From Escherichia coli (GTDB lineage: Bacteria > Pseudomonadota > Gammaproteobacteria > Enterobacterales > Enterobacteriaceae), in the NCBI RefSeq assembly GCF_011045215.1, contig NZ_CP049201.1: DNA of 64,000 nt; one strand, given 5' to 3'. Positions 12,001 through 18,000 of this stretch are shown one piece after another. Position 1 is the first letter of the stretch; every line of letters begins with the position of its first letter. Made by a program: the position numbers.

Positions 12001-15000
12001 ATAAATGCGGCTATTACAGCCAGTATACCAGCCACAATAAAAGCAAATTGCCAGCTGTGGAACATAATGCACCATGCAATCAAAGGCGGGGCTAACATGG
12101 CACCAAATGATGTCCCCATGTTAAATACACCAGTTGCGATGCCTCGTTCTTTTGCCGGAAACCATGTTGAGGCTGTTTTTACGCCCGCCGGAATAGCTGA
12201 AGCTTCACTAACGCCCATGATACCACGCATGAATGCCAGTCCCATCCAGGAGCCAGTCAGGGCGTGTCCCATCGTGGCTAATCCCCAGATAACTGCACAG
12301 ATAAAGAAGCCTAATTTAAGGCCGATATTATCAATAAAGAACCCCATAATTGGTTGACCTATTGTGTACGCCAGCTGGAATACACTTACAATCCAGGAAT
12401 ACTGTTCTTTAGAGATCCCTAAATCTGACATTATGGTTGGTGCCGCAACGCCAAGAGCGGTACGGTCAAGATAGTTAATGATAGTAATGAAACATACGAG
12501 AACAATCATATGCCATCTGTAGTGTTTTATATATTTCATATATACCTCAAATGGTTAAGAAGGAGGCTTACAAGGTCACATGTTGTTCCAGATATTACCC
12601 GTTCCACGTTGTCATGAAAGTGATCAACCTCTTGCTTTTATTGGTTGACCAGTTAGTTGACATTGTTTTACGTATAATTACAAAACCAGTCATTCAGAAT
12701 ACATGAGAATATTTAACTGAACCCTGTGGTTTGCAATTGAGAATGGACTTTATCAAACCCGGGTGCTATGTAATGGCTCGCTGGAGGTCGTTTTAGCCAG
12801 GTTTTTATTGACGAGTTTTCTGTTAGTGGCGGGAATATGTACCAACCCCCCTGAAGTGGTCGGTTGATATGTGTGTGTCGCCGGCAGCGTGGGGTTGCGT
12901 TATTTTCGGGAACACAAAAAGTTTAATAACCTGTAATTGTTAATAGAAAGGGTGTTAAAAGTGAATGTGTTACGAGTATTTGTTAGAATTATTGGCGTTC
13001 AGGTGGGGGATTTGCCCCTGTATTTCCAGACATCTGTTATCACTTAACCCATTACTGGTCCGCTGCCGCAGATATTCCTGTGGTGAGCGGTAGTTTGGTG
13101 CACTATGTGGATGCCATCCGTTATAGTGCATGAACGCCTTCGTAAGATTCTTTGCTGCCATTAGCCTGTCTGGTTGAGCATTATACAGATGTTGTTACAC
13201 TTCAGCGTTTTCATGAACCTTTCTGTTATTCCATTGCTTTGAGAGCCTCTAATTGCTGTTGTACAAGGCTCATAGCTCAGTTATGTCATTAACTTCTGTG
13301 TTTCATCAGTAAGAGCCAGGTGATTACGTAGTTCATCTTTCTACCGATGGATTGGTTGCCGTATAAAGGAGCTTATCAACAAAGCACTGTTCCTCTATGT
13401 CAGCGCGACGATGCAGTGCTATGGCACTTTCCCAAACTTCCATTTCTGATTGTTCCAGTAACGCCAGTTACCTGTCACTATTTTTATGAATTCGATAAGA
13501 AATCTTCATCATATATGATCGATTTTACCGATCGATATGATCGCATTGATCGGTTGTAACCATTTTACCCTGTCTTTTGAGTGGTTTTAAAATAGGCAAC
13601 CTTATTTATCGAGTAGGGTAAGAACCAACGGAGATGATTGAAATGAAAAAGATTTTTCGACTTCAGCATTTACAATGGTAAGTATGCTTTCAGCCCTGGC
13701 TCTGGCAGATGAGGGTAAAACAGAGCTCTGTGTGGCAGAAAAGGCAGGTATACCTGTCATCACTGTGTATATTTCGGCACCGGAAGTATCGTATAGTGAA
13801 TGCAATATCAGGAGGCGTCTGGTCTACGAAGATATATCAAAGCGGGAAGTCTGAGAATGTATTAAATACCACTCAAAAAGAGTGGATGTGTTGTTTCAAT
13901 GATAAATGTTTCGTAGAGTGGTTTTATATTTTACGAGGAACTGAGTATGGGATTCTGGGATGTTGTTACAGGTCTTGGTAAATCTGCGTCTAATGTGGTT
14001 TCTGAAAGGATGAAAGCAAATTATTGGGATATGTGGAACAAAATAAAGTCCTCTCCGGTGGACAGAATTAATGATTTTTATAATCAGAATAACACAAATG
14101 ATTGTAATCGCGCTTCATACAGAGGGTTGGCAATTGCTGCTTTACATTACAGAGGTGACTGGAATTGTGCCCGCTTATGGCGTGAGGATCGGGATGCGGC
14201 AAACTGGTTAAAAAGTTTTAGAGTGAAAATTTCATTGGATACTTCTGTTTCAGCAGATGAATTACGCAGGATAATTGATCGCCTTGCAGAACAGGGGTAA
14301 TGGATTATATTCTTATTCTACTGATACATGCCGGAATATGGACGAATCAGAGGCTCTGGTACCCGGAGAAGAGGTATCAGACCTTAAAGTACACATAAAG
14401 GGACGTCATGATGTGGTATTTTCCCCCGTCTGTATTTATTTGTCATGAATGCAACTGGAAAAAGACGGTTTCCAGTACCGGAGATGTACTGACAGAGGTA
14501 GATAATATATTTACCGTGTGTCCCGTATATGGAAGTGAACTTGTTGAAAGGCGTAGGGCGATTCCAGTGGAAGTCTTTTTTTCTATTTTTAACAGCGTAT
14601 TCCCCTTTAAATATTAATTAATCTCTGATGTTCACCTGGTGTATTGATGTATGATTGATGCTAAAAATATGCTCACTGAATCAAAACTTATAAAGTTTCT
14701 GGATTATGCTTATGATAAGTCTGTTGAGGGGATTGGTGTTCCCGGAATAGATACTGCACACAGTCTTGCGGAAAGTTACCTGAAAACAAAAGGGACATTA
14801 AAAGAACAGATTAACTGCCTTATTCGCTGGCAGAATACCAAATCTGCCACGTCAGGTTTTCTTACCGGACTTGGTGGTGTGATGACATTACCAGTAGTGA
14901 TACCGGTTAACATTTCAGGTATTCTTTTCCTGCAGGTCAGAATGGTGGTGTCAATTGCGATTATGTGTGGTCAGGATATTCGAGATGATAGAGTCAGAAC

Positions 15001-18000
15001 AATTGTCTATACATGTCTTGTGGGCAATGCTGCTAAAGATATTCTGAAGGAAGCTGGTATTCAGATAGGCCAGAAGTTAACAACAAGTGCAATTAAAAGT
15101 ATAAGTAAGGAGATTATTGTAAAAATAAATAAGGCAGTAGGCTTCAGATTGATGACAAAAACAGGTTCTACTGGTGTCATCAATTTGTCAAAGTTTGTTC
15201 CGGTTGTGGGGGGGATTGTTGGTGGTGGTTTTGATGCAATAACAACAAATATTATCGGGAATTATGCAAGAGATACATTTCTGAGTCTGGCAGATAATTA
15301 TTCCTGTGGTTAATATTTGCTCATTCTGGCCGGGGTATTTCGGTATACCCTGAGATATGAAATAAACATAATCCCGTGGAGGTATGAAAAATACAGGGAG
15401 AATTGAACGCCAGGTTTCCCGGGAAGGAGCGGTTGACAGGGTATTCCCCGGGGCTTCTTCCCTGTCGAACCGGTCCGTCTGGTAGATTGTCAGCGTAATG
15501 TGCAGCTTTTTTCATAGTTACAGAAATGAGGTCTGTCCATTTTTTGTAAGACATCTCTTTTCCTGAGAGGTCAGTGACCAGATGACAGCCAGAAATTCAG
15601 AAAGTAAATCTGAAAATAAAGAATGAGAAATTATATGTTCTGTTACTGACATTCTGTTGAATACCTGTAATGTATGACTTATGCCATCTCTGAAAAGACA
15701 ACTTTATTACGCCCGGATGATTTCGCTTTATATAAGGCATTATCAGTAGCATTATAGATATCAGATGCGTTAAGTGATTTATCTCGTATCAGAGTAACGC
15801 CAATACTAATGGTGACCCCACCGGGGATATTGTAGAGTGTTGTATTATTTGTCTGGGTTTCGACATGTCTGCGAAGTCTTTCCGCTAATATTTTTATTTT
15901 TGATGGATCCATATTATTAATAATAATACCAAACTCTTCTCCTCCGAGACGTGACAGAATATCTGTTGTGCGGATGCCTTGTTTTAATATATCGACAACA
16001 GCCAGAATGACTCTGTCACCAGCAGGATGTCCCCATGTATCATTAACTGATTTAAAGTGATCGATATCAATAATAAAGACACCGGATGAATATGTATCTC
16101 CTGTTGAGAGAAGTTCGTTTATTTTTTCAAAGAAAAAATTTCTGTTATATATTTTTGTCATTGGGTCGAGGTTGCTTAATTGTTTTGTTGATTTCAGAAC
16201 TTTAAATATGTGATATATGAAAACAGAAACAACAATTAATTTACTGAACATTTCTGCCATTCGGCTGAGATACCAGAGATGCATATGCCCGTCAACAATA
16301 AACAAAACGAAAACATTATAAAAAACAGCCGAGACGGCAATCAGTAATATCCCCTTCCATATATCATTGTTTACCGCTCTGGTATAAAAAAGCGAAAAAA
16401 CCAGTCCCAGCCATAAAAAAACAATAAATTTAATGTATGTTTCAATATGGACAAAATCAAATTTGTATAAAGCAGTTTCAGTTATATTCGGGAAGAAGTA
16501 TTGATGGCTAATCAGATATGATATTACAGGTAGTATTATCATACAGGCAAAACAAATCAAAAAAATCGTTTTATTACCGGCAATCATTGCGGTATTTTTT
16601 CTTCGGTTTCTGACACACAATGCCAGATATATAATCAGGCAAAAGCTCAGTTGTCTGAAGAAATAATGGACCATGATTGAATTATGTATGCTTACTACAG
16701 ATACAGTATCACTTTCGTATTGTTGAACAATTATTATTGTCAGAACAAGATATATAATACAACTGAAGAAAGCCAGCCCAAGAATACAATGCGAGAAGTT
16801 ATTTCGGTCATAGATAAAATAAAGTTGCATAAAGAGGAAAGCAATGATGTTTATAAAAAATAAAGCCACCATCATCATTAAATAAGTTGATTGTGTTATA
16901 ATGTGGTAATGTCCGGGTGAAAGGGGATAAAGGGTTCCATTATTGATAATAATAAGACAAAATCCGAGTAAGATACAGAAAATAACAGCAGAAATACTGC
17001 AGAGATATTCCTTTTTCATAACATACTTACGTCCATGCTTAATCCTGTATCTAAAATACATAAAATCATGGTGTTGTCAATAGCCAGTGTATCTGCCGGA
17101 ATGGCCGGAAGTTACGTTAATACGTGATGAAATAAATCCGCATAAAGATTATGCTGGTTTTATATAAAGAATTCTAATCATTGATTGTAATAGAAAGGAG
17201 AGACGATTCACCACTATCGGGTGGGGCGGAGTTTAATCCAGGCTATAAAGTATTACGAAAACTTTTAAATGAGAATCAGGATTAATTTACTTTGTTATCT
17301 TTTCCCTGGTACTTAATCCATCTCCCCCATCAGACGGTCAGTCTGGGGGGATTATTGACAGACTTGCGCGTTATTTGTATGTAGAGTGCTCTGACGTAAT
17401 ATCTACTGATACCGAAAATTTGTATGCTTTATCCCGACTGAAAACGGAAGTATCCAGGGCCAGACATATTCCCCCTTCATATTCCTGCATTTTTGTATAA
17501 TTTCCTCTGAAAGTCTGTCATCGATTCTTTTCCGTAATTCGTCCTGTTGTCTGAAAATATTTTCGCATATTTCGAAATCATCTTCCTGCATCAGCATTTC
17601 TGCGCATTTAATTATTTCTGCCCGTTCACATAGTACAGAGGAATGATTGTATAGCCAGTTTATAAACAGCAATACTTCCGGATGTTCTCTCCATAATGGG
17701 TGATATGTTGCATAATAGTCTTCAGCAGTATCCGGACCGCCTGAAAAGTCATACCATATCGCAAGAGGAAATGGATGCAGATTTCCGCACAGTATTTCTG
17801 CGATGTAAGTATTTGCCGTAAAGCCACGACGAAATGCAGTTGCAGCTTTTTCCAGTTCCCCATTAAGAAAATGCAGAAGGCCGAGTTCATACCAGTAAGG
17901 TGAAAATTCATCAGCGTACTCATTCAGTACACGGAAAGCTCGCTCATGATCACCTGTTCGTAACAGTTCTGAACCCAACAACCAGCGGGTACCCTGATTA

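Follow-up and report, generated by a model that had tools for sequence, protein, structure and literature searches.

EcsC proteins (Pfam family PF12787) have had no assigned function since the description of the Bacillus ecs operon, and we know of none for Bacillus EcsC itself, in agreement with the Pfam description. We report here on a cassette of three plus-strand genes, the last of which encodes an EcsC-family protein, in a 64,000-nucleotide stretch of Escherichia coli DNA (contig NZ_CP049201.1 of assembly GCF_011045215.1), referred to below as the window. The open reading frames (ORFs) are p117 (13947-14300, 117 aa), ZnR, which encodes a zinc-ribbon-like protein (14408-14617, 69 aa), and the intact EcsC gene of the PADLOC PDC-S29 subfamily (14651-15313, 220 aa). 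Spacers of 107 bp and 33 bp separate the three. A first-pass annotation, made from the sequence alone, had proposed these genes as an uncharacterised module with a candidate membrane-associated stress or defence function.

Several described systems invite comparison. Small membrane proteins of prophages that act in superinfection exclusion or abortive infection include T4 Imm, P22 SieA, lactococcal Sie2009 and the Rex-type membrane effectors. The dynamin-like Eleos defence genes, leoA, leoB and leoC, form a separate module in the same window. In addition, three independent threads place EcsC-like genes beside immune systems. PDC systems, among which PADLOC counts PDC-S29, are phage-defence candidates proposed through "guilt by embedding" in restriction-modification (RM), BREX or DISARM systems, and are described by their authors as no more than candidates (Payne et al., 10.1101/2024.01.29.577857); the supplements of that preprint (10.1101/2024.01.29.577857) contain no text on PDC-S29 or EcsC. 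The one further paper found to name PDC-S29 lists a Streptococcus thermophilus strain that carries it, without a functional test (PMC11514479). EcsC-like (PF12787) genes have been reported in putative operons with the jumbo-phage sensor jukA, in a preprint according to which sensor and effector may be encoded apart (10.1101/2022.09.17.508391). Finally, an EcsC-like gene is a predicted member of the CASP-sigma regulon at a type III-E CRISPR locus (PMC10028731).

The EcsC-family protein and its relatives

The profile search that the first-pass annotation had called for bears out its family assignment, and the coordinates given there are right. The protein scores 44.3 bits against PF12787, where the gathering cut-off is 30.4 (E 2.2e-11, residues 21-210). 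The match spans just positions 69-235 of the 240-position profile, which marks the protein as a short, divergent branch of the family. The match to PADLOC model PDC-S29 is nearly end to end (E 1.8e-85, 284 bits, profile positions 10-214 of 220), while that to PDC-S30 is weak. Candidate defence status had thus been proposed independently, in the form of a candidate family, and because the subfamily is already catalogued as PDC-S29 that status is not new. PDC-S29 is a label, not a mechanism, and itself a candidate.

A database search found 869 homologs at E <= 0.001. All of the best 120 of these carry PF12787 (120/120), at identities of 56-100%, and they come from Proteus, Vibrio, Aeromonas, Halomonas, Massilia, Azotobacter, Paenibacillus, Brevibacillus and others. 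An identical protein is encoded on 200 contigs. Subfamily members are about 210 aa long (range about 210-220 aa), and an alignment of 146 sequences contains 17 invariant and about 50 near-invariant positions. The conserved motifs are LIRWQNTK (57-64), S/T-G-F-x2-G-x-G-G-x4-P-x3-P-x-N (68-87), Q95/R97, D113 and K-x2-P-x2-G-G (181-188). The protein in the window is full length and keeps every family-invariant residue.

Kyte-Doolittle hydropathy, averaged over 19 residues, reaches 2.06 across residues 66-108 (43 residues), a segment that contains the invariant G/P motif, and about 1.3-1.45 across a second, Gly-rich stretch at 172-203. Judged from these sequence features, membrane association of EcsC is plausible. 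A first AlphaFold2 run on 68 sequences gave a predicted local distance difference test score (pLDDT) of 58 and was unusable; with a deeper alignment the model is all-alpha, with pLDDT 76 and a predicted template-modelling score (pTM) of 0.79, and confidence is low in the Gly-rich region 172-193. The protein has no catalytic or enzymatic motifs. A sequence-profile search of the PDB returned no match, no solved or viral structure was found to be alike, and no PHROGs family was matched by EcsC, p117 or ZnR.

Carriers number 259 among 100,044 species genomes (one genome per species) and span Proteobacteria, Campylobacterota, Bacteroidota, Bacillota, Myxococcota and Patescibacteria. The subfamily is unusually conserved, at 50-61% identity over phyla, yet rare, mobile and without a solved structural relative. 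Outside Escherichia, EcsC is a solo gene, patchy in occurrence and horizontally spread. When all ORFs within 7 kb were clustered for 78 species loci, no neighbour recurred in more than five loci, and phmmer comparisons among the closely adjacent ORFs of these loci detected no similarity and no conserved partner. The most repeated neighbour families are generic: integrases, IS66, WYL regulators, GGDEF, MCP, SDR and LysR. Immediate neighbours in the 78 loci include genes for OLD/Gabija-like, PDC-S11, HEC-06 and SspE/GmrSD proteins and a type I methyltransferase. The Aeromonas gene lies 37 bp downstream of type I hsdR, beside McrBC; GmrSD is encoded near the Paenibacillus gene; the Endozoicomonas gene sits amid toxin-antitoxin and transposase genes; and the Proteus/Morganella gene occupies a variable region after fis. 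Homologs are therefore not uniformly housekeeping genes outside mobile contexts, the finding that would have told against the first-pass proposal, since they are patchy, horizontally spread and often found in mobile or defence settings. In length, in near end-to-end hidden Markov model match and in solo habit in most taxa, the protein resembles PDC-S29 as catalogued, and the Aeromonas copy abutting hsdR supplies an instance of embedding in an RM system. The E. coli copies differ in being preceded by p117 and ZnR, which lie outside the PADLOC definition.

EcsC relatives also occur on 13 IMG/VR contigs. On at least three of these (L038, L040 and L042 in our numbering of loci) the gene is a lone opposite-strand insert, or moron, beside terminase/portal or tape-measure/amidase genes. 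Like T4 Imm, P22 SieA, Sie2009 and the Rex-type effectors, EcsC is thus small, hydrophobic and encoded by one gene, shows no enzymatic motifs, and is carried on islands and as a phage moron; no sequence or structural similarity to those proteins was detected, and the resemblance is one of lifestyle only. Locus L040 also contains an ORF of 933 aa, and the PHROG family that it matches best bears the label "RNA-dependent RNA polymerase".

The cassette and its ancestry in Escherichia

Several E. coli loci share the order p117-ZnR-EcsC, and their sequences fall into three types. Type A comprises the window and loci L001, L003, L004, L017-L020 and L028-L030, is found in 7 of 5,426 complete genomes, and occupies a tRNA-Sec/Phe island, with DndB-E directly upstream in L020. 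Type B (L005-L008; 17 of the 5,426) follows an intact 249-aa outer-membrane protein (OMP) gene beside a P4-type integrase gene. Type C (L021-L023) is integrase-adjacent; in L023 it is immediately preceded by QatABCD, and in L021 and L022 a gene for a ResIII/DEAD helicase lies about 3.4 kb upstream. The P4-type integrase gene lies within about 1 kb of the cassette in types B and C. The type-B strains are mostly poultry-associated, and their minimal island, in which the OMP gene and the cassette are essentially the sole cargo, stands beside ulaE/ulaF-like genes and rpsF.

Identity between types is 84-90% for EcsC, 68-84% for p117 and 31-77% for ZnR, and all three diverge congruently, so that the types group as ((B,C),A). 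The ratio of nonsynonymous to synonymous substitution (dN/dS, Nei-Gojobori) between types is about 0.2 for p117, 0.32-0.46 for ZnR (0.32 for type B vs type C) and 0.11-0.15 for EcsC. Since dN/dS is below 1 and divergence congruent, the three are real coding genes inherited together. The first-pass view of the 117-aa ORF and the zinc-ribbon paralog as partners of EcsC is borne out by co-inheritance in three types under purifying selection; in the window itself ZnR retains three of four cysteines. The association of EcsC with a zinc-ribbon gene holds as a unit within Escherichia; the partners are essentially confined to Escherichia, and elsewhere EcsC stands alone.

Neither p117 nor ZnR belongs to a curated family in Pfam, NCBIfam, PADLOC or PHROGs, and word-indexed and exhaustive searches found homologs of both almost exclusively in E. 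coli. The p117 protein is intact in the window, has an invariant N-terminal MGF(W/F)D motif, and is soluble and probably helical; a profile search of the PDB matched designed TPR or helical proteins only and was uninformative. The exhaustive search found a few distant p117 relatives at 31-39% identity. One of these, the 113-aa P0163 (38% identity), occurs in L024-L026, where EcsC is absent and the neighbours are a PDC-M09 A/B pair and a BrxR/WYL regulator; proteins of the small MGF(W/F)D family may be accessories of defence islands in their own right. The 192-aa genes that flank this relative in L024 were considered and are not EcsC-like.

ZnR has a hydrophobic C-terminal tail. In the window, codon 41 reads TAT instead of TGT (G>A at 14529), giving Cys41Tyr; the protein reads CHEC...CPVY (CPVYG, not CPVCG), has three of the four cysteines of a C4 zinc ribbon with two CxxC knuckles, and matches no curated zinc-ribbon family above threshold. 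The CxxC...CxxC pattern is intact in the paralog at 4422-4616, in types B and C, and also in certain type-A variants from metagenomes. Of 11 type-A copies compared, five have Cys41Tyr and another five an independent Cys38Tyr; strain 1303 carries the sole type-A copy of the 11 with all four cysteines, and its C-terminal tail differs. One Cys41Tyr copy, in strain CFIAFB20180511, has an added frameshift.

Upstream of the cassette, on the same strand, lies the remnant of a Tia/Hek-like OMP gene (13477-13764), consisting of the promoter region and the first approximately 120 nt, with its ATG at 13643 and a frameshift. Up to 13727 it is 98% identical to the region of strain cq9 that precedes an intact OMP gene and includes the first approximately 52 nt of that gene. 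It shares 81-82% DNA identity with the start of the OMP gene of module 1, the Eleos module of the window, and with type-C cassettes, with a common breakpoint near 13764. Types A and C have thus kept the cassette across a common deletion of the OMP gene, which argues that the cassette is not OMP-dependent. The ancestral form of the cassette follows a Tia-like OMP gene, as leoCBA does.

Module 1 has the plus-strand order OMP-ZnR-LeoC-LeoB-LeoA, identified with PADLOC and NCBIfam models. Its Tia-like OMP gene (3591-4346, 251 aa; Pfam OMP_b-brl, E 2.2e-21) is followed by a ZnR paralog (4422-4616, 64 aa from its ATG, in an ORF that opens at TTG 4356) with intact Cys ligands, situated between the OMP gene and leoC. 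Then come LeoC (4657-5316; PADLOC E 1.7e-77), LeoB in two halves (5326-6042 and 6046-7041; PADLOC E 1.4e-106 and 3.4e-109) and LeoA (7013-8746; PADLOC E 2.5e-286; NCBIfam DLP_LeoA_gen). The leoB halves, which match LeoB model positions 4-239 and 243-568, are separated by an in-frame stop at 6043-6045. Because of this nonsense codon, as compared with the intact leoB of 1716 bp in strain JNU, the Eleos of the window is probably inactive.

The two ZnR proteins are true paralogs (37% identity, E 3e-12). More than 190 E. coli contigs encode the module-1 protein, with the OMP-ZnR-leoCBA order preserved, and it may belong to E. coli Eleos as a component or regulator that has been overlooked; the cassette ZnR is left unannotated by RefSeq in the strains examined. 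The slot of EcsC in the cassette is equivalent to that of leoCBA in module 1, each coming after a Tia-like OMP gene (in the cassette a remnant only) and ZnR, and the parallel position pointed out in the first-pass annotation is thereby real. With the OMP remnant preceding the cassette as the OMP gene opens module 1, both modules descend from an OMP-ZnR-cargo layout. The likeness to Eleos extends to an expected action at the membrane. It does not extend to sequence: EcsC is not homologous to LeoA or LeoB and lacks a GTPase domain, and no PADLOC Leo model matches EcsC, p117 or ZnR, the Leo genes being found in module 1 only. The idea that EcsC is a stand-alone dynamin "paddle", the membrane-binding part of LeoA or LeoB, was rejected, the hhalign probability being about 1% for both. 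A 216-aa ORF after leoA in L124 proved to be a phosphoethanolamine-transferase fragment, not EcsC.

The cassette lies near the integrase-proximal end of a tRNA-associated defence island; the first-pass annotation had already placed it on an island. The island boundary is marked by a P4-type tyrosine integrase gene (20422-21633) and tRNA-Phe (21780-21855), both on the minus strand, and its backbone recurs at tRNA-Sec or tRNA-Phe in other strains. To the left of module 1 are a PDC-S08-like (5'-nucleotidase-like) gene at 1098-2035, matched by PADLOC at E 2.4e-81 in two frames (1098-1733 and 1751-2035) and probably a frameshifted pseudogene, and, on the minus strand at 2113-3032, an HNH ORF (2113-2529) and a type IV restriction-like ORF (2601-3032), remnants of a phosphorothioate-dependent restriction endonuclease whose counterpart in strain C5 is a RefSeq pseudogene. 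Given these split and remnant genes and those of Eleos, the surroundings amount to a partly decayed defence island. What is new beyond the PDC-S29 catalogue entry is the Escherichia-specific three-gene architecture, the OMP-ZnR leader ancestry held in common with Eleos, and the recurrent loss of a zinc ligand in type A.

Proposed function and alternatives

Our leading reading, offered tentatively as a possibility that falls somewhat short of probable, is that EcsC is a membrane-inserted effector which works at the inner membrane and counters phage or other mobile DNA as it arrives. It might block the entry of such DNA, as in superinfection exclusion, or might collapse the membrane of the infected cell, as in abortive infection. 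The small partners, p117 and ZnR, would be Escherichia-specific cytoplasmic accessories that regulate or trigger EcsC. To judge from their sequences, EcsC and p117 of the window look functional; any control that depends on ZnR is probably altered or lost there, because one of the four zinc ligands is gone. The E. coli surroundings agree with a role in defence: Eleos, the PDC-S08-like gene and phosphorothioate-restriction remnants in the window, DndB-E in L020, QatABCD in L023 and the helicase gene in L021 and L022. A more specific version is distinctly unlikely: that the three proteins form a hitherto unrecognised three-component membrane-acting anti-phage system, that ZnR is an adaptor or trigger shared in Escherichia by two unrelated membrane effectors, EcsC and the Eleos dynamins, and so an overlooked fourth component of E. 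coli Eleos, and that the repeated type-A Cys-to-Tyr changes reflect selection on the trigger and not mere decay.

Several observations weigh against our leading reading. Invariant Gln95 and Arg97 sit in the main hydrophobic helix of EcsC, which could for that reason be the buried core of a soluble bundle and not a membrane span. In the 78 species loci, roughly a tenth of the immediate neighbours listed match defence models (an approximate reading, not a statistic), and many neighbours are ordinary metabolic or regulatory genes. Our literature search found no experimental characterisation of any PDC-S29 member. The cassette is rare in E. coli, types A and B together being seen in the 7 and 17 complete genomes given above. 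Damage to type A is frequent, with EcsC frameshifted or disrupted by an insertion sequence (IS) in four of seven complete genomes and p117 IS-disrupted in one, and ZnR has lost a cysteine in 10 of 11 type-A copies.

The cassette might instead have a non-immune envelope function and assist the Tia/Hek-like outer-membrane adhesin that it once followed, for instance in the quality control of membrane proteins, in secretion or in coping with envelope stress, an account that we consider unlikely. On the minimal island of the ancestral type B, which has no defence genes, the cassette comes immediately after an intact OMP gene; in each module a ZnR paralog comes after a homologous OMP gene; the plausible membrane association of EcsC would fit; and many neighbours in other species are non-defence genes. 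Such a role would echo the Bacillus Ecs locus, which is secretion-related, as well as the NCBI name of leoA ("toxin secretory dynamin-like GTPase") and the toxin-secretion phenotype originally reported for that gene. It sits poorly, however, with types A and C, which have no OMP gene and yet keep three cassette genes under purifying selection; with the lack of an OMP, ABC-transporter or any other recurrent neighbour of EcsC outside Escherichia; with a patchy, horizontally spread distribution unlike that of a conserved envelope component; and with EcsC copies inside phage structural modules. The related notion that EcsC completes an ABC transporter of the EcsAB type as its third component, on the model of Bacillus subtilis ecsABC, is close to refuted. 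The Pfam family name and the profile match above the gathering score are all that speak for it, whereas the first 68 profile positions are unmatched in this shorter, divergent subfamily (coverage 69-235/240), which is patchy and mobile and not part of a stable operon. No EcsA (ABC ATPase) or EcsB (permease) partner or other ABC transporter gene adjoins EcsC in the window or in related E. coli loci, and none is recurrent in the 78 species loci.

It is also conceivable, if doubtful, that the cassette of the window, whatever it did ancestrally, has lost its function and is decaying as a passenger on a degraded island; this is compatible with our leading reading. The record of ZnR suits such decay, with Cys41Tyr here, the independent Cys38Tyr in the other type-A haplotype and the added frameshift in CFIAFB20180511. 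Within type A, moreover, no coding stretch varies more than ZnR (7.1% variable columns vs 2.3% and 4.5%), and comparison of the window with L017 gives ZnR a dN/dS of 1.6, a value that comes from few substitutions. EcsC or p117 is disrupted in five of seven complete type-A genomes, EcsC by frameshift in strains C5 and 1303 and by IS66 truncation in AL.H8 and A30, p117 by IS66 in RM8082. Neighbouring genes are broken too: the leoB nonsense codon, the split PDC-S08-like gene, and the restriction, IS and OMP remnants. On the other hand, EcsC here is full length with its invariant residues kept, the identical protein recurs on 200 contigs, and p117 is intact; and since EcsC is solo in nearly all other taxa, the loss of ZnR need not inactivate it. 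A further proposal makes EcsC a Juk-type effector against early jumbo-phage infection, with JukA (YaaW) encoded elsewhere in the genome, and we regard it as highly improbable. Putative alternative partners reported for jukA include EcsC-like genes, and a sensor apart from its effector has precedent in the same study (10.1101/2022.09.17.508391). Those genes may belong to another EcsC subfamily, though, and EcsC is not JukB. No jukA lies in or beside the cassette, Pfam searches found no JukA (YaaW; Cbp3-like, DUF3944) domain in p117, ZnR or neighbouring proteins, p117 and ZnR matching no Pfam family at all, and neither this association nor any other recurrent partner appears in the 78 species loci.

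The cassette is one among many defence candidates, yet it offers a testable handle on a long-unassigned family. E. coli provides a tractable entry, with natural alleles that are intact (type B), that have lost a zinc ligand (type A) or that lack the OMP gene, in an easy genetic host. The paralogy of ZnR with a gene of the Eleos module raises the question of small zinc-ribbon proteins coupling phage sensing to membrane effectors. Should the function prove not to be defence, one candidate would be pruned from widely used defence-annotation tools.

Other genes near the cassette

A promoter and terminator scan of 13100-15800 gave no more sites than shuffled sequence. Between EcsC and the next large gene lies a minus-strand ORF of 77 aa (15321-15554), annotated as a gene in some assemblies (L017, L020) and matching no family. 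It is followed on the minus strand (15679-19539) by genes for a MASE4-GGDEF diguanylate cyclase, a 346-aa TPR protein and an AraC-family regulator, an invariable triad between cassette and integrase in type-A islands. GGDEF or EAL genes adjoin EcsC in a few other species too, possibly by chance, such genes being common.

Between module 1 and the cassette are a phosphoethanolamine transferase gene of the EptA/MCR-like sulfatase family (9113-10786) and a divergent major facilitator superfamily transporter gene on the minus strand (11247-12539). A remnant of an IS or integrase core occupies approximately 12970-13161. In L002, from other strains, another phosphoethanolamine transferase gene comes immediately after a homologous OMP gene.

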